NCBI GenBank assembly: GCA_035387745.1
Contig: DAOOON010000030.1
Location: 1-7,678 of the forward strand
Direction of reading: 5' to 3'
Origin: an archaeon
GTDB lineage: Archaea > Iainarchaeota > Iainarchaeia > Iainarchaeales > CSSED10-239
DNA length: 7,678 bases
Positions 1 to 7,678 of this stretch are shown in pieces; positions within the stretch are counted from its first letter, which is position 1; every line of letters starts with the position of its first letter. The notes beneath the pieces were generated by a model. The model saw only the letters and a list, made by a program, of their open reading frames with translations. It was not told where the DNA came from and ran no database searches. The translations under genes and the position numbers were made by a program.

Positions 1-39
1 ATACATAAGCTAAAGAGAGAAAATGAGGCTCTTTCTAAA

Positions 40-804
40 TTAAAGAAATAGTTTTTTAAAGCTAGATATGATTTCGCCACTTGCCTCTTTAAAACCCGGA
101 ACATTAAGAATCAACTGAGGTAATTCTGTTTCCCAGAGTTTTTCTCTGTCTTCTATTTCTGTAATAAATTCTTTTAAATTAAATTTTTGATTATAGAATG
201 CCAGTTTTTTATTTATTATATCCTTATCAATTTCTATTTTTTTTAATATTAAGAAATATAAGTCATAAACATCTCTCGCTTTTTTTCTAGTCATTATGGC
301 CCGCACTTTTTCTGCTAATATTTCTTTAATATCTAAGGTGTTGATATAAAATACAGGGAATTCGTTATAGATGTGATTTATTCTAGAAACTGCGCCATTA
401 GAGAGGTAGTCGTTTCTTCTAGAGAAATCAATAGTGTTTTTGCATCTGGTGTTGTTTGTATTTTTATATAATGGCCCGTAGAAATAAACTTGTGTGTCTT
501 GAAATTTATTGTCTTCTATTTTATAGTCAATTACAATATCATAGTCTGCAAGAAACGTTTTTATTTTATTTAATGTTTCATCAATATTCAAATCTTTATC
601 AACTACATTAAAATCCAGATCTTCAGAAAATCTATCCAGTCCATAACAAAGCATTAGTGCTGTTCCTCCTTTAAACATTAATTTTTCAGGAAATAATTTA
701 GATATTGCAAAAAGTATTGCAATATGCAGGTAGTTTTTTTCAGTTTGCCCCAGATTGAAATTTATTTTTTTTTTATATTCTTTTAATTCATCAATATTGA
801 TCAT
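40..804 (-). CDS. abiEii: AbiEii/AbiGii-family nucleotidyltransferase toxin (type IV toxin-antitoxin, DUF1814/PF08843-like)
   Basis: The ORF is 40..819. It contains the family-typical block FKGGTALMLCYGLDRFSEDLDF (GGTAL ... R.SEDLDF nucleotidyltransferase motif). It lies directly downstream of, and overlaps, an AbiEi-like gene. I prefer the second ATG at 804 (MINIDELKEY...) because GAGG (reverse complement of 814-817) sits 9 nt upstream of it. The ATG at 819 is itself part of that GAGG context. Confidence 0.85.
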   Translation of the reverse strand: MINIDELKEYKKKINFNLGQTEKNYLHIAILFAISKLFPEKLMFKGGTALMLCYGLDRFSEDLDFNVVDKDLNIDETLNKIKTFLADYDIVIDYKIEDNKFQDTQVYFYGPLYKNTNNTRCKNTIDFSRRNDYLSNGAVSRINHIYNEFPVFYINTLDIKEILAEKVRAIMTRKKARDVYDLYFLILKKIEIDKDIINKKLAFYNQKFNLKEFITEIEDREKLWETELPQLILNVPGFKEASGEIISSFKKLFL

Positions 805-1486
805 AATCAAGAACCTCATTTATATTTATTTTCCATTTTGCGTTGTTGATTTTTGATTTTTTAAGTTTTCTGTTTAATAGGATGTATTTTTTAGTGTTTT
901 TAATTTTTGATAGATATTCTTCATAGATGTCTATTCCCTTAATTTCTAGTAGATACCCTGTTCTTCTTATTAAATCAAGATTATTTATTCTATTTAAATA
1001 ATTAATTAGTTTATCTTTGTCTAGATTGTCTTTTAATAATTTATGTAATTCAGATATACTAACATATTTTTGATAGATTAAACAATCTAATAGTAGTTTT
1101 TCTTTCTCTGCAATAAATATTTCAAAATCGCCATATCTTATTTTTTTATATCCAAAAAAATTTCTTTTATTTATTTTAATAAACTTTATTTGCCTTAGTT
1201 CTTTTTTTTGTTTAGTTATAGCAACTGTTGCTTTTAACGGTATTTGAGTAGTATAGCCATAAAAATTAAGCGCAGATAAAAAAGAAAGATAAGATGGATT
1301 AATAATTTGTGTTGCATAAATTAATGGATCCTCGTGCAGCGTATATTTCCCTTTTTCTATAGTTTTTATTTTTGTAATGTGTCTGCAGATATATACTTCT
1401 GGATATTTAATCCCATAGTGTAATTTTAGATCTTTGTTTCTAAACAAAGGCAGTTTAGTGAGTTTTGATAAATCCATAATAAACAT
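791..1486 (-). CDS. abiEi: AbiEi-family antitoxin / wHTH transcriptional regulator
   Basis: This 231-aa ORF sits upstream of, and overlaps, the AbiEii gene (14 nt overlap with start 804, 29 nt with start 819). It has an N-terminal IEKGKY-type wHTH signature. PSYLSFLSALNFYGYTTQIP and EKEKLLLDCL resemble the conserved AbiEi blocks (P.Y.S..SAL..yG...Q.P; EkalLD). The start could be ATG 1486 or ATG 1477 (MDLSKL...). No SD is present, so the transcript is probably leaderless. Confidence 0.75.
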   Translation of the reverse strand: MFIMDLSKLTKLPLFRNKDLKLHYGIKYPEVYICRHITKIKTIEKGKYTLHEDPLIYATQIINPSYLSFLSALNFYGYTTQIPLKATVAITKQKKELRQIKFIKINKRNFFGYKKIRYGDFEIFIAEKEKLLLDCLIYQKYVSISELHKLLKDNLDKDKLINYLNRINNLDLIRRTGYLLEIKGIDIYEEYLSKIKNTKKYILLNRKLKKSKINNAKWKININEVLDYDQY

Positions 1487-1520
1487 ATATATAAAAACAT
1501 TTATAACCCTTTTTATATAT
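1487..1520 (-). promoter_or_regulatory. Candidate abiE promoter/operator: 11-bp perfect inverted repeat bracketing a TATA-like box
   Basis: ATATATAAAAA (1487-1497) and TTTTTATATAT (1510-1520) are exact reverse complements separated by 12 nt. On the minus strand the spacer reads TTATAAAT (1499-1506). The element abuts the abiEi start codon. On the minus strand ATATATAAAA lies at -34..-25 of ATG 1486, and TTATAAAT lies at -29..-22 of ATG 1477. Confidence 0.4.
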
Positions 1521-1580
1521 TAAATTATACAAAAAAGTACAATTTACGTTATAAAAAGTAGGCGACATAAAAATAGTAAA

Positions 1581-1606
1581 AAAAGATATCGTTTTTGATA
1601 TCTTTT
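1581..1606. terminator. Perfect 10-bp stem hairpin flanked by A/T runs (bidirectional terminator-like)
   Basis: AAAAGATATC (1581-1590), loop GTTTTT, GATATCTTTT (1597-1606). On the plus strand it is followed by GGAG then T7 (1611-1617). On the minus strand it is followed by TTTACTATTTTT. No annotated gene ends here, so the terminated transcript is unknown. Confidence 0.4.
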
Positions 1607-1922
1607 GGAGTTTTTTTATTATTTTGGCTTTTATTTATTTTAGGTGATCAAACTCATACACCCCTGTTTAGTTAAATGTTTTTGATTTTAGCAATTTAAT
1701 AAAATTAGAAAAGGTGCAGTCTTTTATTTCATAATTTTTTTCTTCAAGAAGGCGCACTCTTCCACCCCCTGTGTAATTTAGTTTTTATTTTTTGAAAAAT
1801 GTATTTTAAGCTATATAATATATAAGAAAAAAAATCTAAGTAAAACGCAGTTTCTATTTTTTTTAAAATTCTTATTTTAAGGGGCCAATTATACATAAAA
1901 ACGGGTTTAATTTTGCCATAAC

Positions 1923-1948: not shown

Positions 1949-2106
1949 ACTAAAAAAGTAAGCTCTAAAAACCAACCCTTTTTAAACATTACTGCCCCTT
2001 AAGTTCTATATTCCACATATATGGAATAACTGAATCTGTTTTGTACTGGAGTTTATTTTTGAGCCAGTCATTAATACACACAGGTTCAATCTTCATAAAC
2101 AAAAAA

Positions 2107-2130
2107 AGTTTCTTTGTTAGAAAAGAAACT
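2107..2130 (+). promoter_or_regulatory. 5' leader hairpin of the S-layer mRNA
   Basis: AGTTTCTTT (2107-2115), loop GTTAGA, AAAGAAACT (2122-2130). This is a 9-bp perfect stem ending 5 nt before the GGAGG RBS. The position is typical of stabilising leader hairpins in highly expressed surface-protein genes. Confidence 0.45.
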
Positions 2131-2135
2131 AAAAT

Positions 2136-2140
2136 GGAGG
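2136..2140 (+). promoter_or_regulatory. Shine-Dalgarno (GGAGG) of the S-layer gene
   Basis: GGAGG lies 8 nt before ATG 2149. It is the only strong SD in the window. Confidence 0.7.
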
Positions 2141-2148
2141 AGAAATAA

Positions 2149-2232
2149 ATGAAGAATATAAATGTAAAGAAAGTAGTTGCTGGCGCAGCAGCACTTGCAT
2201 TAGGTGTAGGTGTTCTTGGCGTAGCAATAGCT
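2149..2232 (+). other. Signal peptide (residues 1-28), predicted cleavage after AIA
   Basis: MKNINVKK forms a basic n-region. VVAGAAALALGVGVLGVAIA forms a hydrophobic h-region ending in an A-x-A motif, followed by GNNNGT. Confidence 0.6.
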
Positions 2233-4404
2233 GGTAACAACAATGGTACAGCATTTGGTTCTGTTGCAAAGACAGATGTTTACAACACAGCAGACATGTC
2301 ACCAAAAGTAACCTTAGTTACCGGAACAGTCGGAGACGATGATGCATGGGCACAAAACATTGCAAACGCAATTGCAAGTAATGCAAAGAGAGAGAACCCA
2401 CTATATGCTTCATGGGTACCATCCGATGGCGAAACAACCACAACAACCGGCGAAGGTAAAGAATTCAAAAAGAACGAAATAGGAGACGATTTTGCGGATT
2501 TAAAACTAGATTATAAAGACTATCCTGCGCTTGGAGACTATAAAGTAAAAGTAAATAATACAAAATTTGGAACAACAGAGATAAAAGTAAAAGATTTCTT
2601 ACTTGTTTCAGGTAATGTTGCTTTTGATCCAGACGAAGATGTAAAAGACTTAACAACAACAATAGAGTCCCAACAATTAAAATACCAGGTAACATTTACA
2701 CCAGGAATAAAAGACGGTGCAGATGATACAGGAAGTCCAGATTTCAAATTCGAGATTATGGGTAAAGAATATACACTAGAAGAATGGGACGGTACATCAA
2801 AAGAATTAACTCTTGTTCAAAATAAGGCAACCACACCATATAGTGAAGGAGATTCTTTTACAGCAGATAATTACACAATAGAAGTAGTAAACATCCTTGA
2901 TTCTGGGGCAGAGAATGAATACGAAGTAGAATTAAGATTAAAGGATGCTTCAGGCACAGTCAAATCTACAGACATATTTGTAGCAGGAGACGAAATATTT
3001 AGTGACTATCTTGATGTAACTGTAGAAATTTCAAAAGTATATTCTAACAGAGTTGCGGTGGTCGCAGGAACTAGTGCAAAATTAACTCTTAAAGACGGAG
3101 ATTTAATTGAGGATTTCCCAGAATCTGAAGATGAGTTATGGGCAGTAGATATGGAGGTTGTTGATAAAGCATTAATAAGCATAACAATCTATAATGATGA
3201 CCCAGATGTAGAATGGAAAAACGAAAACGCTCTAAAAATCGGAGATTCAGCATCATATCCATTTGACTTTGCAAAAGTTAAGTTTGAAGGTCTTACAGAA
3301 GAGGATTCAAAAGCAGTAACTGTTGAAGATGGATATATAAATTATACAGATGCAGATGACGAAGATCACGAAATATTCTTTTACGACTATGCTTCCTGGA
3401 GTAACGGTGTAGAAAGATATACCACAAGAAAAACAATTGATGACAAGAAACTGTACTTTGATTTCAATACAACTTCTGGTAAATTTACTATACAAGAAAC
3501 AAACAGCGACGGGGAATATCTAGATCACGACGGAACTTGGGGTACATTACACGAATACGATATACCAGATAACAATACAATCGACTTTAATGTTGGATTA
3601 TGGAATAATGAAGAGGAACTAGTGACCTATACCATATATACCGATTCAAATACAAGCATTAAAAAAATCGCTGTTGGCTTAAAAAAAGGAGCTACAGGAA
3701 CCATAAACGATTTAGACAAGGACCACACTTGGGAAATTGGTGACATATATGACAGCGTAGATGTTGACAACCACAAAACCGGTATAATGATCGGTGATAA
3801 CGATGATGGCTTTGCAACAGCAGCACTAAAGTCTATGTTTGAATTTATCGTTTCAGATGATACAGAAGGGGCATTTACTGCACATATCGACGCATATACA
3901 GGCAATTTAGTAAATACCAGCAGTACAAAGTACAAAGCAGGTCTTGTTCAAGTTACTTCTGAAGACTTCTATGATTTAGATCAAGAAGAAACAGATGATT
4001 TAAGATGGGCATATACCGATTGGGGCACAAAGTACGAAGTTGATGGTGGTAAATTCACTGCAACAATACCAGAAGAGCAATTATATGCAAAAATCTTTAT
4101 CGGTGCAGGAACAGTAACAACAGGCGGTACAGAAGAGAACCCATATGATGAATACATTATGACTCCAGTAACCGTGTCAGATCTTCTAAAGAAAGACTCT
4201 ATGGCAGCAACCGGTACCTTAATCGTTGTCGGTGGACACCTTGCAAATACAGTAGCAGACGGTATAACAAATACCTTCCTTGCACAAACAGGAGATTACA
4301 TTGTGGGTAAATACTCAAACGGTAATATCTACGTTGCAGGTTGGACAAAGGCAGACACAGGTACAGCAGCAGGCGAATTAGTAACCACAATAAATGGTTG
4401 GTAA
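2149..4404 (+). CDS. Secreted S-layer-like surface (glyco)protein
   Basis: The ORF is 751 aa and has the highest G+C in the window. The N-terminus is a signal peptide. PKVTLVTGTVGDDDAWAQNIANAIAS resembles the N-terminal vvVG..a..D...A..IA block of Methanococcales-type S-layer proteins. LIVVGGHLANTVADGI ... NIYVAGWTKADTGTAAGELV resembles the C-terminal VGGp.AN ... VAG....T..AA..L block (PF05123/PF05124, TIGR01564-like; from memory, not searched). The protein is very acidic, has a TTTTT linker and 8 N-x-S/T sequons, and lacks a C-terminal TM anchor. Confidence 0.7.
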   Translation: MKNINVKKVVAGAAALALGVGVLGVAIAGNNNGTAFGSVAKTDVYNTADMSPKVTLVTGTVGDDDAWAQNIANAIASNAKRENPLYASWVPSDGETTTTTGEGKEFKKNEIGDDFADLKLDYKDYPALGDYKVKVNNTKFGTTEIKVKDFLLVSGNVAFDPDEDVKDLTTTIESQQLKYQVTFTPGIKDGADDTGSPDFKFEIMGKEYTLEEWDGTSKELTLVQNKATTPYSEGDSFTADNYTIEVVNILDSGAENEYEVELRLKDASGTVKSTDIFVAGDEIFSDYLDVTVEISKVYSNRVAVVAGTSAKLTLKDGDLIEDFPESEDELWAVDMEVVDKALISITIYNDDPDVEWKNENALKIGDSASYPFDFAKVKFEGLTEEDSKAVTVEDGYINYTDADDEDHEIFFYDYASWSNGVERYTTRKTIDDKKLYFDFNTTSGKFTIQETNSDGEYLDHDGTWGTLHEYDIPDNNTIDFNVGLWNNEEELVTYTIYTDSNTSIKKIAVGLKKGATGTINDLDKDHTWEIGDIYDSVDVDNHKTGIMIGDNDDGFATAALKSMFEFIVSDDTEGAFTAHIDAYTGNLVNTSSTKYKAGLVQVTSEDFYDLDQEETDDLRWAYTDWGTKYEVDGGKFTATIPEEQLYAKIFIGAGTVTTGGTEENPYDEYIMTPVTVSDLLKKDSMAATGTLIVVGGHLANTVADGITNTFLAQTGDYIVGKYSNGNIYVAGWTKADTGTAAGELVTTINGW

Positions 4405-4418
4405 ATAAGTCTAAAACC

Positions 4419-4465
4419 AAAATTGTAAGCTAATAACTTACAATTTTCTTTTCTTTTTCTTTTTG
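4419..4465 (+). terminator. Hairpin plus oligo-T terminator of the S-layer gene
   Basis: AAAATTGTAAG (4419-4429), loop CTAATAA, CTTACAATTTT (4437-4447). This 11-bp perfect stem starts 15 nt after the stop codon and is followed by CTTTTCTTTTTCTTTTT (to 4465). Confidence 0.65.
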
Positions 4466-4495
4466 AACCGGTTTTACGCGGATTCACGCGCAATA

Positions 4496-4515
4496 TTTAA
4501 AACTCGCTATCAGAC
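4496..4515 (+). repeat. Boundary motif copy 1: TTTAAAACTCGCTATCAGAC
   Basis: The 13-nt core CTCGCTATCAGAC is at 4503-4515. The 20-mer matches 6008-6027 at 19 of 20 positions (C/T at core position 3). It lies 225 nt upstream of ATG 4728. Confidence 0.85.
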
Positions 4516-4548
4516 CATAATCTTACAATCACACAATGCATCATTGTA

Positions 4549-4589
4549 AATGACACAAAATAGAAAAATGTGTCATTACAAATGACACA
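4549..4589. repeat. Three AATGACACA half-sites (direct, inverted, direct)
   Basis: AATGACACA at 4549-4557, its exact complement TGTGTCATT at 4569-4577, and AATGACACA again at 4581-4589. The last two form a perfect 9+9 palindrome with a 3-nt spacer. The larger direct repeats TCATTGTAAATGACACA (4541-4557) and TCATTACAAATGACACA (4573-4589) differ at 2 positions. Confidence 0.7.
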
Positions 4590-4610
4590 TCTAAAAGATG
4601 TTTAAATATC
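4590..4610 (+). promoter_or_regulatory. Conserved distal TATA-like block (TCTAAAAGATGTTTAAATATC)
   Basis: This block is collinear with TCTAGAAAAATGTTCTTTAATATC at 6142-6165 and loosely with 1964-1990 upstream of the S-layer gene. In both ATPase spacers it is preceded by an identical ATTACAAATG (4575-4584 and 6119-6128). It could be a second promoter giving a leader of about 95 nt. Confidence 0.3.
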
Positions 4611-4638
4611 ATAATCTAAACAACACCGCGCGCATGTG

Positions 4639-4692
4639 TTCGTTACTATCGAAAGCTTTGCTTAGTAATCATTCGTTACTATCGAAAGCTTT
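4639..4692 (+). repeat. Two perfect 21-nt direct repeats TTCGTTACTATCGAAAGCTTT, period 33 nt
   Basis: The copies are at 4639-4659 and 4672-4692. Each contains the 8-bp palindrome AAAGCTTT. The second copy overlaps the proximal TATA-like box by 3 nt. Confidence 0.9.
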
Positions 4693-4699
4693 AAATATT
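4690..4699 (+). promoter_or_regulatory. Proximal TATA-like box (TTTAAATATT) of ATPase-1
   Basis: It starts 38 nt before ATG 4728 (32 nt before TTG 4722). No SD is present, which suggests a leaderless or very short-leader mRNA. Confidence 0.5.
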
Positions 4700-4727
4700 A
4701 TTTCAACCACTATATTTATGATTGTGT

Positions 4728-5987
4728 ATGATAACAAAAGATGAATTAAAAAAAGTAATTTTAGATCAAAGAGAAAGTTTTGAGAAATCAGAAAACATTA
4801 TACAAAGACAAGTAGATTTAAAATCTTATATAAATTATGATTCGATTGTGGTAATAAGTGGGGTAAGAAGGTGTGGTAAATCTACATTATTAAAAATAAT
4901 TAAAACTAAAATAAATCCAAAAGATTACCTTTATTGTGATTTTTCAGACGAAAGATTAAATAATTTAACAATTGCGGATTTACAACTAATATATGAAATA
5001 TTTTTAGAAAAATACGAATCTGGAAAAAAATATTTTTTTTTTGATGAAATACAATATGTAAACGGGTGGGAAAAATTCGTAAATAGATTATACGAAAAAG
5101 AAGAGGCAAAAATATTTGTAACTGGATCAAACAGCTCTTTACTTAGTTCAGAAATATCGTCTGTTTTAACAGGAAGAAACAAAGTAATAGAGCTTTACCC
5201 ATTTTCTTTTAAAGAATACATTACTGCAAAGAAAGAAACAATAGATATAAACAACTTATCAACAAAAGAAGGCATTAAATTAAATAAATATTTTGATGAT
5301 TATTTTAATATAGGTGGATTTCCGCATGTTATAAATACAAATGATGTTCAGATATTAAAAGAATATTACACAAATATAATATATAAAGACATAATTGTTA
5401 GAAAAAAGATAAGGCAAGTAAAAGAAATAAAAGAAATAATCTCATTTTTATTAAATAACATAGGCCAGATAATATCATATAAAAAGATAATTGCTAATTC
5501 AGAAATAAAAAGCACAAGCACAATAAAGAATTTCATAGATTATCTTAATGAAGCATATATTTTATTTACATTATCCAAATATGACAAATCTATCAGAAAA
5601 CAAATACAAAATCCAAAAAAATCATATTTTATAGATATGGGGATGGTAAGAAAAATAAGTGTTAATTTTTCAGAAAATAATGGCTGGTATTTAGAAAACG
5701 TTGTATTTTTAGAATTATTAAGAAGAAATAAAGAAATTTATTATCATAAAAAAGAAAAAGAATGTGATTTTGTAGTAAAGGAAGGCACACAAATTAAAGA
5801 AGCCATACAAGTATCTTATGAAATGAATCAAAAAACAGAAACAAGAGAGATTAAAGGATTAATTAATGCAATAAAAACCTATAATCTTAAAGAAGGAATA
5901 ATTATAACGAGAGACCAAGAAGAAACGAGAATAGTAGAAGGATATAAAATAAAAATAATTCCAATAGCTAAATGGTTATTAGAGTAA
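4728..5987 (+). CDS. AAA+ ATPase, AAA_14 + DUF4143 architecture (COG1373-type 'archaeal ATPase'), paralogue 1
   Basis: Walker A is GVRRCGKST and Walker B is YFFFDEIQ. TGSNSSLL, LTGR and PFSFKEY blocks are present. A central wHTH-like segment reads SYKKIIANSEIKSTSTIKNFIDYLNEAYILF. The C-terminal nuclease-fold-like segment reads LENVVFLEL ... ECDFVV ... AIQVSYEM ... TREIKGL. The tracked ORF begins at TTG 4722; I prefer ATG 4728 (MITKDEL). Confidence 0.85.
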   Translation: MITKDELKKVILDQRESFEKSENIIQRQVDLKSYINYDSIVVISGVRRCGKSTLLKIIKTKINPKDYLYCDFSDERLNNLTIADLQLIYEIFLEKYESGKKYFFFDEIQYVNGWEKFVNRLYEKEEAKIFVTGSNSSLLSSEISSVLTGRNKVIELYPFSFKEYITAKKETIDINNLSTKEGIKLNKYFDDYFNIGGFPHVINTNDVQILKEYYTNIIYKDIIVRKKIRQVKEIKEIISFLLNNIGQIISYKKIIANSEIKSTSTIKNFIDYLNEAYILFTLSKYDKSIRKQIQNPKKSYFIDMGMVRKISVNFSENNGWYLENVVFLELLRRNKEIYYHKKEKECDFVVKEGTQIKEAIQVSYEMNQKTETREIKGLINAIKTYNLKEGIIITRDQEETRIVEGYKIKIIPIAKWLLE

Positions 5988-6005
5988 TTTCTTTTCTTTT
6001 TATTT
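5988..6005 (+). terminator. Oligo-T tract after ATPase-1 (TTTCTTTTCTTTTTATTT)
   Basis: It starts immediately after the TAA stop at 5985-5987 and has no hairpin. It is homologous to the T-tract at 4446-4465. Archaeal termination at oligo-T is established knowledge. Confidence 0.4.
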
Positions 6006-6007
6006 AG

Positions 6008-6027
6008 TTTAAAACTTGCTATCAGAC
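6008..6027 (+). repeat. Boundary motif copy 2: TTTAAAACTTGCTATCAGAC
   Basis: The core CTTGCTATCAGAC is at 6015-6027, 263 nt upstream of ATG 6278. Confidence 0.85.
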
Positions 6028-6189
6028 TAAATAAATGTGCTATTTTTGTCAATTGTTATTGTTCATATGATTGACCAAAAAAGACGTTTTTTGTTCAGCC
6101 AACTGACCATAATTTTTTATTACAAATGCGGCTCATTTATATCTAGAAAAATGTTCTTTAATATCGAATACTTTTGTCTTTAAAGAAAA

Positions 6190-6247
6190 AAGTGCGTGCG
6201 TTTCTCCACCCACTTTCGTTTTTAAGTGCGTGCGTTTTACCACTCGC
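6190..6247 (+). repeat. Two direct repeats headed by AAGTGCGTGCGTTT, period 34 nt
   Basis: The perfect 14-mers are at 6190-6203 and 6224-6237. The tails have diverged (CTCCACCCACTTTCG versus TACCACTCGCTTT) and share CCAC. These are G+C-rich islets in AT-rich DNA. The second copy ends where the TATA-like box begins. Confidence 0.85.
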
Positions 6248-6256
6248 TTTTTAAAT
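6248..6256 (+). promoter_or_regulatory. Proximal TATA-like box (TTTTTAAAT) of ATPase-2
   Basis: The TTTAAAT core starts 28 nt before ATG 6278. No SD is present, which fits a leaderless transcript. Confidence 0.5.
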
Positions 6257-6277
6257 GTTGTTATACATTAATTATTT

Positions 6278-7528
6278 ATGTATTCAAAAGAACAATTAAA
6301 AGAAATAATTGTTTCTCAAAAAGAAGCGATTGATTCTCAAGATATAGGACTAATAAGAACAGATTATTTAAAATTATTAAAAGAATCAATTCATCCAAAA
6401 ATAGTCACAATATTAAAGGGCCCAAGAAGAGTAGGAAAATCAACAATAGTTTTACAATTTATAAAAGAGATAAATAACAACTATTATTATTTTGATTTTG
6501 ATGATGAGAGAATAGCAAATTTTAAAACAGGGGATTTTGAAACACTAATGCTGGCTTTTCAAGAGCTATACCAAGATAAAGATTATTTGTTATTTGATGA
6601 AATTCAAAATATAGATTCTTGGGAATTATTTATAAATAGGCAATTAAAACAAAATAAAAAAATAATAATAACTGGCTCAAACTCAAAATTATTAAGTGCT
6701 GATTTAGGCACACATCTAACTGGCAGGCACATAGACATAGAAATATTCCCTTTTTCTTTTAAAGAATACCTTTATGCGAAAGATTTTAAAACTAAACAAG
6801 CATACACTATAAAGGAAAAAGCAGAACTTGAAAAATTATTTAAAGATTATCAAAAAACCGGAGGTTTCCCACAAGTTGTATTTTTTTATGACTATAGGAT
6901 ATTACAAGAACTATACAGAGACATAATTGAAAAAGACACAAAAGATCTAAAAAGTAATCAAAAAATAAAAGACGTTTCCGATTATTTATTATTTAATATT
7001 TCTACATTAGTTTCTTTAAGAAGCATACAGAAAAACTTTGGTTTAAAAAACACAAACGAAGCAAAAGCTATAATAAAAAGACTAGAAGCAACATATCTTT
7101 TCCAATTTATAGAAATTTATTCAAATTCTTATAAGGAAAGAAAAGCAAACCCCATGAAATGTTATTCAATAGATGTTGGTTTAGTAAACAATATTTCAAC
7201 AAAACTAGTAGAGGATAGGGGGCAGCAATTTGAAAATTTAGTATATTTAAAGCTAAGGAAAGAAAATGCACAAATATATTATTATAAAAAGAAAGGGGAA
7301 ACAGATTTTATAGTAATAGATAATAAAAAACCAATACTTGTAGCACAAGCTTGTAGTAATCTAGCAGACAATAAAACCAAAGAAAGAGAAGTAAGTTCTT
7401 TATTAGAATGTATGGATCAATTAAATATTAAAGTCGGGATAATAATAAACAAAGATCTAGAAAAAGAAGAAACAATTGATGGCAAAAGAATAAAGTTTAT
7501 ACCTATAATTAATTGGTTATTAGAATAA
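6278..7528 (+). CDS. AAA+ ATPase, AAA_14 + DUF4143 architecture (COG1373-type), paralogue 2
   Basis: Walker A is GPRRVGKST and Walker B is YLLFDEIQ. TGSNSKLL, LTGR, PFSFKEY and GGFPQV blocks are present, followed by FENLVYLKL ... ETDFIV ... KEREVSSL. It shares its C-terminal ending with paralogue 1 (IPIINWLLE versus IPIAKWLLE). Outside these blocks the two proteins are clearly diverged. Confidence 0.85.
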   Translation: MYSKEQLKEIIVSQKEAIDSQDIGLIRTDYLKLLKESIHPKIVTILKGPRRVGKSTIVLQFIKEINNNYYYFDFDDERIANFKTGDFETLMLAFQELYQDKDYLLFDEIQNIDSWELFINRQLKQNKKIIITGSNSKLLSADLGTHLTGRHIDIEIFPFSFKEYLYAKDFKTKQAYTIKEKAELEKLFKDYQKTGGFPQVVFFYDYRILQELYRDIIEKDTKDLKSNQKIKDVSDYLLFNISTLVSLRSIQKNFGLKNTNEAKAIIKRLEATYLFQFIEIYSNSYKERKANPMKCYSIDVGLVNNISTKLVEDRGQQFENLVYLKLRKENAQIYYYKKKGETDFIVIDNKKPILVAQACSNLADNKTKEREVSSLLECMDQLNIKVGIIINKDLEKEETIDGKRIKFIPIINWLLE

Positions 7529-7537
7529 CTACTTGGT

Positions 7538-7561
7538 TAATAACTTACAATTTCTTTTTTT
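7538..7561 (+). repeat. 3'-flank block shared with the S-layer terminator, plus oligo-T tract
   Basis: TAATAACTTACAATTT (7538-7553) is identical to 4431-4446, which is the loop and right arm of the S-layer terminator hairpin. It is followed by CTTTTTTTT. The left arm of the hairpin is absent here. Confidence 0.7.
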
Positions 7562-7579
7562 AATTTCTAAAATCTCATT

Positions 7580-7592
7580 CTTGCTATCAGAC
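7580..7592 (+). repeat. Boundary motif copy 3: CTTGCTATCAGAC
   Basis: It is an exact 13-mer match to 6015-6027 and lies 52 nt after the ATPase-2 stop. If the spacing rule holds, the next gene should start about 225-263 nt downstream, beyond the window end. Confidence 0.8.
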
Positions 7593-7678
7593 AAGCATTT
7601 TTTGTACTTTTTTTAGTTTTTAACAATTAGTTAATTATTTAAATATAATTGTCTATAAATATATTATATGCAAACAAA

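Follow-up and report, generated by a model that had tools for sequence, protein, structure and literature searches.

The stretch of DNA analysed here, called the window in what follows (contig DAOOON010000030.1, 7,678 nucleotides (nt)), carries three direct copies of a 13-mer, CTYGCTATCAGAC, one behind the gene for an S-layer protein and one behind each of two ATPase genes. The repeats that hold these copies originate in the tail of the S-layer gene, the modules which they delimit are polymorphic among relatives, and the breakpoints lie at the motif. We consider it probable that the 13-mer is the distal end of the S-layer 3' flank and that the slot behind this gene is a recombination hotspot, in which each defence-type module ends in a duplicated S-layer tail.

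Homologues of the S-layer protein bear names such as 'Candidatus ainarchaeum sp.' or archaeon, and homology together with synteny indicates that the organism is a DPANN archaeon near Iainarchaeota. All loci used for comparison are metagenome assemblies; L-numbers denote related loci or contigs, and L001 is a 21-kb part of a 68.5-kb Logan contig containing the window region. The features on which the argument rests are the following.

2149-4404, plus strand: S-layer protein gene, 751 amino acids (aa); homologues carry PF05124 (S_layer_C)
4183-4515, plus strand: conserved S-layer 3' block (last ~220 coding nt, stop, hairpin, T-tract, linker, 13-mer), ~98% identical to L073
4423-4443, plus strand: stem-loop TTGTAAGCTAATAACTTACAA right before the T-tract, pairing kept in relatives
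4444-4464, plus strand: T-tract of the oligo-T archaeal terminator type after the S-layer gene, invariant in seven lineages
4465-4502, plus strand: X linker, GC-rich, 38 nt, from T-tract to 13-mer, replacing the short AT-rich linkers of other lineages
4503-4515, plus strand: 13-mer copy 1, CTCGCTATCAGAC, native copy of the intact S-layer gene
4728-5987, plus strand: ATPase1, AAA_14 plus DUF4143 (PD-(D/E)XK), defence candidate PDC-S01
5988-6027, plus strand: trimmed S-layer 3'-flank scar (T-tract 5988-6001, linker 6002-6014, copy 2 at 6015-6027), 89% identical over 65 nt to the L043 S-layer 3' flank
6278-7528, plus strand: ATPase2, AAA_14 plus DUF4143, PDC-S01
7538-7592, plus strand: trimmed scar (right hairpin half 7538-7553, T-tract 7551-7561, linker 7562-7579, copy 3 at 7580-7592)

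The 13-mer and the S-layer 3' flank

The copies match exactly at 4503-4515, 6015-6027 and 7580-7592, all on the plus strand, the first starting with CTC and the other two with CTT, and a search of the window with two mismatches allowed gave no further match. Three matches were reached by none of 200 dinucleotide-preserving shuffles (mean 0.09 matches; the G+C content of the window is 29%), in agreement with the initial annotation, which had called the three-copy motif far beyond chance. The T-rich tracts that it described before each copy (4444-4464, 5988-6001 and 7551-7561) and the TTTAAAA ahead of copies 1 and 2 are present as well. An interrupted copy had further been suggested on the plus strand at 1923-1948; this was ruled out, as the stretch is not conserved in four relatives, which have only CAGCCA in common. 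Nor is a spacing of about 226 nt to the next start codon a rule, since copy 3 lies 88 nt from the next ATG (7668) and the distance in relatives is ~117-372 nt, which gives a range of 88 to 372 nt overall. All copies are direct, co-oriented with transcription and downstream of a T-tract; no inverted copy occurs on the minus strand, where the terminal inverted repeats of a miniature inverted-repeat transposable element or insertion sequence would call for one.

The same element follows the S-layer genes of relatives. It is exact after the S-layer stop codon in L071, L072, the L022 group, L073 and L043, and takes the form CTTGCTATATGAC in L080 and CTTACTATAAGAC in L075, whose S-layer protein is 42% identical. 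In eight lineages the motif is found at +70 to +105 nt from the stop, behind a stem-loop and a T-tract. Mean pairwise identity over these lineages is 0.91 for the 13-mer; the adjoining 13 nt reach 0.54 and 0.52, and the final 45 nt of coding sequence 0.48. In a profile of 17 copies, positions 1-8 and 11-13 are nearly invariant and variation is seen at positions 4, 9 and 10; the conserved element is asymmetric (CTTGCTAT NN GAC TA). The stem-loop at 4423-4443 is also maintained, double changes preserving the pairing in 6 of 13 pairs across the eight flanks, and its single-sequence fold has a z of -3.5. The linker between T-tract and motif measures 13 to 45 nt and occurs in unrelated versions among lineages. 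The X linker is present twice in L073, and a diverged X-like version is found in scar 1 of L080. This GC-rich segment of 35-38 nt, GAACCGGTTTTACGCGGATTCACGCGCAATATTTAAAA, is inserted between T-tract and 13-mer in some copies only (window 4465-4502; L073 12398-12435 and 13909-13946; L080 3127-3161).

In the 188-293 kb contigs of relatives the combination of T-tract and motif occurs once per contig, which makes it a single-locus element and not the genome-wide signal for which the initial annotation had proposed a pattern search. In the more distant lineages L077, L078 and L079 T-tracts are present and the motif was not found. An 18-mer scan of a genome contig collection gave six matches, all within coding sequence of unrelated bacteria (queA-like, kinase start), and a metagenome scan gave 52 loci, six of which are relatives (the L022 group and L043) and the others look like chance matches. 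Comparison of the S-layer flanks indicates that, in one clade of DPANN archaea, the 3' flank of this gene has the 13-mer as its conserved distal end. The 13-mer is not part of the ATPase module, since the ATPase1 orthologue of L082 has the promoter and the operators and no 13-mer.

Duplicated S-layer tails and module boundaries

The origin of the additional copies is best seen in L080. There, all four ATPase genes with following sequence carry an S-layer coding remnant of 70-160 nt (…AARALI..INAM*), and the stop codon, hairpin, T-tract and motif come next. Identity of these repeats to the native tail is 87-94%; their right ends lie 6 nt past the motif in three of the four and 14 nt past it in one, whereas the left ends vary, and the ATPases between them are only 25-41% identical. 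A like scar, stemming from another allele of the S-layer gene, stands after the ATPase gene of L073. The scars of the window are shorter. Together with their flanks, copies 2 and 3 show 77-89% identity to the S-layer tails of relatives, and the 7538-7592 scar is 77-83% identical to the S-layer 3' flanks of L043, L044 and L027; the sequence TAATAACTTACAATTT, which occurs at 4431, returns at 7538 as the right half of the S-layer hairpin before copy 3. Direct repeats taken from the 3' end of the target gene thus flank each element in L080, in L073 and, in trimmed form, in the window. A diverged fourth copy of the 13-mer follows an 859-aa surface protein gene in L001 and L073.

The position of the breakpoints follows from the comparison of the window with L073. 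The two share ~98% identity from 4183 up to the final base of the 13-mer, past which they are unrelated. When 60-nt flanks were tested against the same L073 copy, identity was 1.00 on the left and 0.28 on the right of copy 1, and 0.37 on the left and 0.77 on the right of copy 2. It follows that the 1512 nt of the ATPase1 module form an indel with copies 1 and 2 as its limits. The proposal that the motif marks module boundaries, and the expectation that relatives differ there in module number and order, are borne out by this indel and by slots that hold from none to five ATPase genes.

It could be argued that such boundaries betray the core of a dedicated att-like or integron-like site, at which a recombinase encoded elsewhere moves cassettes. 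The ATPase1 module is bounded exactly by two copies that share TTTAAAACTYGCTATCAGAC, homology between lineages ends 0-6 nt past the motif in all comparisons, and the copies are all direct with a strictly conserved 13-mer. Against this, the repeats take in 70-160 nt of variable S-layer coding remnant, which points to homology-based or illegitimate events and not to a fixed core, and the motif is without dyad symmetry or hairpin. Moreover, the same architecture exists without the motif. In L077, a single ATPase gene is located between perfect 53-nt repeats (10957-11009 and 12466-12518), the repeat containing the hairpin plus T-run that come directly after the stop of the upstream gene. An ATPase module of L078 lies within a 555-nt repeat, 94% identical (8877-9430 and 11202-11754), which comes from the 3' ends of both convergent flanking genes and leaves remnant open reading frames (ORFs) of 36 aa and 93 aa. 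In L082, an AbiE pair is enclosed by perfect 69-nt repeats (4901-4969 and 6636-6704). These motif-less cases argue that local duplication of the target is general to module insertion in these genomes, and, since the flanking repeats have other sequences, that the 13-mer is unlikely to be a dedicated attachment core.

The search for enzymes points the same way. The initial annotation had suggested looking for a recombinase beyond the ends of the window, and no Pfam match to one was found within the 21 kb of L001; including the relative loci, about 150 kb of Pfam-annotated context showed no integrase, transposase or other recombinase. The modules hold only an ATPase gene or an AbiE pair, without an integrase of their own, and three scans of viral contigs for an attP-like copy of the 13-mer gave chance matches only. 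The slot of L072, at first sight an empty site, records the loss of a gene through an internal deletion: between 4684 and 4805 it still contains, as L022 does, two ATPase promoter regions and 20 nt from the start of an ORF whose ATG has become CTG. Clean excision of a cassette is thereby ruled out. Altogether, we regard a dedicated attachment site as improbable.

The gene content of the slot varies strongly within a frame that is conserved in synteny among relatives of ~80% nucleotide identity: a radical-SAM gene, a 77-aa gene, MJ0538, the S-layer gene, the variable slot, a large surface protein gene, a convergent T2SSE ATPase gene and RPA. The slot is empty in L022 and L072. One AAA_14 gene is present in L073, one accompanied by other genes in L075, two in L071, and five consecutive ones in L080/L081, and the window has two AAA_14 ATPase genes together with an AbiEi/AbiEii pair. 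The AbiE module of L001 begins 12 nt or less past copy 3. Across the relatives, the interval from S-layer to T2SSE gene contains differing sets of PDC-S01, AbiE, Bro-N and PIN genes, so that variable defence genes stand between conserved flanking genes, as in a defence island or hotspot. All 16 contigs carrying ATPase1 share the gene order of the window, and arrays recur in independent assemblies (L080/L081; L001-L006 and L092-L097).

The L080 array also stands out by itself, with five AAA_14/PDC-S01 genes, mutually 25-41% identical, in less than 9 kb (1-8911; also in L081), which is very dense for a small DPANN genome. We know of no earlier description of up to five PDC-S01 paralogues arrayed within about 9 kb.

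The mechanism that we favour would be as follows. In the interval behind the S-layer gene, single-gene defence-type modules would pile up, namely PDC-S01 ATPase-nucleases with their own promoters and AbiEi/AbiEii pairs. Every accretion or rearrangement would duplicate the S-layer 3' end and leave a scar copy of it at the end of the module; in the window, trimming would have reduced the ATPase1 and ATPase2 scars to T-tract and 13-mer. The duplications could arise by homology-driven events, such as single-crossover (Campbell-type) integration and excision of circular module DNA with homology to the target, and unequal crossing-over between scars would also lead to gain, loss and shuffling of modules. 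Host recombination, and not a dedicated recombinase, would drive these events. If the 13-mer is conserved as the last cis element of the S-layer transcription unit, which we suggest only tentatively, the scars might double as terminators of the inserted genes. We infer that gain, loss and shuffling of modules are driven by homology.

Some observations fit this less well. The breakpoints cluster 0-6 nt from the 13-mer, and one of the crossovers needed just 13-20 nt of identity; a site-specific enzyme would also account for both. The motif lies 13-45 nt past the T-tract, and current models of oligo-T termination in archaea do not need such an element. One may also envisage that the single-gene defence modules are mobile cassettes that insert at gene 3' ends or terminators and duplicate 50-550 nt of the target without an integrase of their own, perhaps by means of the PD-(D/E)XK nuclease of PDC-S01 or an unknown host enzyme, with the S-layer tail as a preferred landing pad and the 13-mer as a boundary or crossover signal. 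We give this version a small but real chance.

ATPase promoters and the role of the 13-mer

Both ATPases match the PADLOC candidate family PDC-S01 (ATPase1, E = 1e-115; ATPase2, E = 3e-95), an unvalidated candidate in which an ATPase is fused to a PD-(D/E)XK domain and which is common in Archaea (PMC12988326; PMC3424549). DPANN genomes are enriched in AbiE and in such defence candidates (PMC12988326; PMC3424549). The regions in front of the two genes are composed as follows.

4516-4638, plus strand: proximal part of spacer 1, with GTCATT..AATGAC-type palindromes at 4542-4586; similar palindromes follow the motif in L075 and L080
4639-4702, plus strand: ATPase1 promoter, 21-nt direct repeats (4639-4659 and 4672-4692) abutting TATA-like AAATATTA, conserved with orthologues in L080 and L082
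6028-6180, plus strand: promoter remnants, similar at 6040-6117 to the upstream region of AAA14_398 type in L073, with a degenerate operator region of ATPase1 type at 6119-6180
6190-6260, plus strand: ATPase2 promoter, 27-nt direct repeats (6190-6216 and 6224-6250) abutting TATA-like TTTTTAAATG

Each ATPase gene has a repeat pair and a TATA box 25-35 nt ahead of its ATG, conserved with orthologues at other loci; the ATPase1-type pair is kept in L080 and at a different locus in L082, there without the 13-mer. It was further observed that every PDC-S01 gene has a direct-repeat pair of its own, often internally palindromic, spaced 33-37 nt and abutting the TATA box, with further pairs in L075 (7040-7100), L071 (8990-9050) and L082 (6636-6704). 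The repeat sequence differs among ATPase subfamilies and is conserved among orthologues. These pairs look like operators and are perhaps autoregulatory.

The initial annotation had pointed to collinear blocks common to both ATPase spacers and had concluded that whole modules were propagated. The blocks exist (ATTACAAATG at 4575 and 6119, TCTARAAA..TTTAATATC, the repeat pair and the TATA box), and together with two adjacent paralogous ATPases they could suggest a plain local tandem duplication of one ATPase module with spacer remnants. Propagation of the modules from one another is not supported. Tandem gene duplication is contradicted by the ATPases themselves, which are just 39% identical: ATPase1 is closer to bacterial homologues than to ATPase2, being 45-50% identical to proteins of Bacteroidota and Chlorobi, and it is 84% identical to the first ATPase of L080. 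In addition, the gene ahead of copy 1 is the unrelated S-layer gene, whose 3' end is the source of the repeats, and the order of modules differs among relatives. We find this explanation scarcely credible; the shared part of spacer 2 is a degenerate remnant of an ATPase1-type promoter, next to an AAA14_398-type upstream remnant.

A regulator common to the downstream genes might also use the 13-mer as its operator or upstream site, since most copies of the motif precede an ATPase gene and a TATA-like TTTAAAA adjoins copies 1 and 2. The variable distance to the next start, given above, does not fit this, nor does the distance between TATA-like sequence and motif, which varies as well; the TATA-like sequence is absent in scar 1 of L080, and TTTAAAA was rejected as a promoter on these grounds. 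The downstream genes are unrelated (ATPases, AbiEi, a Bro-N-like gene, none in L072), and each ATPase has its own operator pair at the TATA box. A regulatory site of this kind is very improbable.

Various other identities of the element were explored. An Rfam scan of the window gave a sole match at chance level (E = 4.1), elsewhere in the window, and a scan of the window for tRNA and tmRNA genes found none. No conserved pairing (0 pairs) exists in linker plus motif, single-sequence folds at copies 2 and 3 are no better than those of shuffles, and the 17-copy profile lacks dyad symmetry, which rules out a dif/Xer site or a palindromic operator. A C/D-box small RNA on the minus strand was dismissed by eye, as the C-box-like ATGATGC accompanies copy 1 alone and has no conserved counterpart at copy 2. 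The sequence CTTGCTATC may resemble CTTGATA-type nick sites of rolling-circle replication; no Rep gene is present.

A more attractive role is in 3'-end formation. The tracts at 4444-4464, 5988-6001 and 7551-7561 have at least five T shortly after the stop codon on the coding strand, as archaeal intrinsic terminators do; they are predicted terminators and are conserved in relatives. Four short JGI contigs (L007-L010; samples 3300019205, 3300019219, 3300019221 and 3300019247) span only the predicted S-layer transcript, within 2024-4629, with 5' ends at 2024-2108, downstream of the TATA box at 1976-1995. Two of them, from different samples, end at 4507, five bases into copy 1, and the other two at 4620 and 4629. 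L043 was grouped with them as another short contig covering only the S-layer transcription unit. These contigs may be assembled mRNA, although an RNA origin could not be confirmed, and the ends at 4507 are only suggestive, as DNA contigs likewise start or break near 4486 and 4617. It is conceivable, and we offer it tentatively, that the 13-mer is a signal read as primary sequence, by which the 3' ends of the very highly expressed S-layer unit are fully formed or the unit is insulated.

This should be distinguished from the stronger claim that the copies are independently maintained end-of-gene signals (for termination, processing or insulation) instead of recombination scars. In support of that claim, the motif always comes after a T-tract, co-oriented with transcription and behind unrelated genes, trimming of the scars has spared both the motif and the T-tract, and the two transcript-like contigs stop in copy 1. 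However, it is absent after ATPases without an S-layer-derived tail (the ATPases of L071; L075 7134-8414; L082), some scars are decaying, e.g. CTTGCTATCGGGC in L073 and CTTGCTATCACGT in L072_b, and in the L080 scars the motif is conserved no more than the surrounding 200-nt repeat. The motif is also not genome-wide, and the uncertain nature of the contigs has been mentioned. Independent maintenance has, in our opinion, little probability, no more than a dedicated attachment site.

Neighbouring genes, related islands and significance

Other genes of the window and its surroundings belong to the same changing landscape.

40-819, minus strand: AbiEii
791-1486, minus strand: AbiEi
7668-7678, plus strand: start of an AbiEi-like gene, next module; AbiEi/AbiEii in L001 11391-12903

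The upstream AbiEii/AbiEi pair (window 1-1855; L001 3779-5500) is an insertion as compared to L022 and L072 and is common to L071, and a pair of 91-aa and 88-aa genes (L001 2103-2779) is a further intergenic insertion with respect to the same two loci. A second recurring element, GCACTGGACAGCTACCC(C/T)CCCGAAAA, occurs just upstream of ORF6N/Bro-N-type genes in different places and genomes (L001 15640-15665; L073 16725-16750; L075 8555-8590 and 14545-14580).

The S-layer gene itself is also variable. Between flanks that are 98-99% identical to L001, its centre (2438-4115) cannot be aligned with L001 6152-7838, and across this swapped part of ~1.7 kb protein identity is as low as 41%. As far as the alignment tells, one allele has replaced another at strain level, by crossovers within the conserved coding sequence for the N and C termini. 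The region upstream of the gene (1976-2148), consisting of TATA-like CCCTTTTTAAACATT and a leader of ~150 nt, is 88-100% conserved in five lineages, far more than the coding sequence; the leader holds a perfect palindrome, TATTCCACATATATGGAATA (2009-2028), and a hairpin before a GGAGG ribosome-binding site.

At tRNA and tmRNA genes, tandem accretion of islands is mediated by integrases, and with every element part of the target's 3' end is copied. This process is the closest analogue. In both cases, an intact target is found at one end and a partial copy of its 3' end after each element, arrays vary between strains, and the direct repeats have a roughly common distal boundary and element-specific proximal boundaries. 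Here, however, the target is an S-layer protein gene with its terminator, the modules are 1.5-kb single-gene units without an integrase, and the repeats of 40-250 nt (up to 555 nt in L078), as well as the motif-less cases, point to homology-driven events.

Integron attC arrays are similar in that they consist of co-oriented single-gene cassettes with a recurring boundary element, carry toxin-antitoxin or defence cargo, and have no recombinase inside the array. Neither IntI nor attI was found here in the 21 kb of L001 and the relative loci, the 13-mer boundary is not an imperfect palindrome and has no R''/L''-L'/R' GTTRRRY core, and the modules have their own promoters whereas integron cassettes are mostly promoterless. 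Xer/dif modules (IMEX, pdif) use a site of ~28 bp with inverted 11-bp arms and a 6-bp spacer, unlike the asymmetric element described here. Compared to archaeal oligo-T terminators, the T-tract directly after the stop or hairpin of each gene agrees, with the 13-mer always downstream; such terminators are defined by the T-tract alone, however, and do not include a sequence-specific 13-mer 13-45 nt further on.

Homologous recombination is known to replace S-layer cassettes, and flexible genomic islands of additive and replacement type have been distinguished (PMC4033161). The swap of the S-layer centre between flanks of 98-99% identity corresponds to the replacement type and the presence or absence of slot modules to the additive type. 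What differs is that scars from the 3' end of the neighbouring replacement island lie between the cassettes, and that the mobile-element enzymes that are usually invoked were not seen. The slot likewise resembles defence hotspots (PMC12988326), with variable defence or candidate genes between the conserved S-layer and T2SSE ATPase genes and with PDC-S01 and AbiE as DPANN-enriched families, but it is anchored on the S-layer terminator and its modules are delimited by the duplicated tail of that gene.

Thus, one locus links the rapid replacement of the main surface protein, which is likely the contact surface with viruses or hosts, to rapid turnover of candidate antiviral genes in symbiotic archaea with small genomes. 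Up to five PDC-S01 paralogues are arrayed without a visible recombinase, each delimited by a duplicated terminator region, and the homology-driven process proposed here provides a concrete model for how defence genes may be gained and shuffled in recombinase-poor DPANN genomes. Should the 13-mer prove to act in termination or processing, 3'-end formation in archaea would gain a sequence-specific element.

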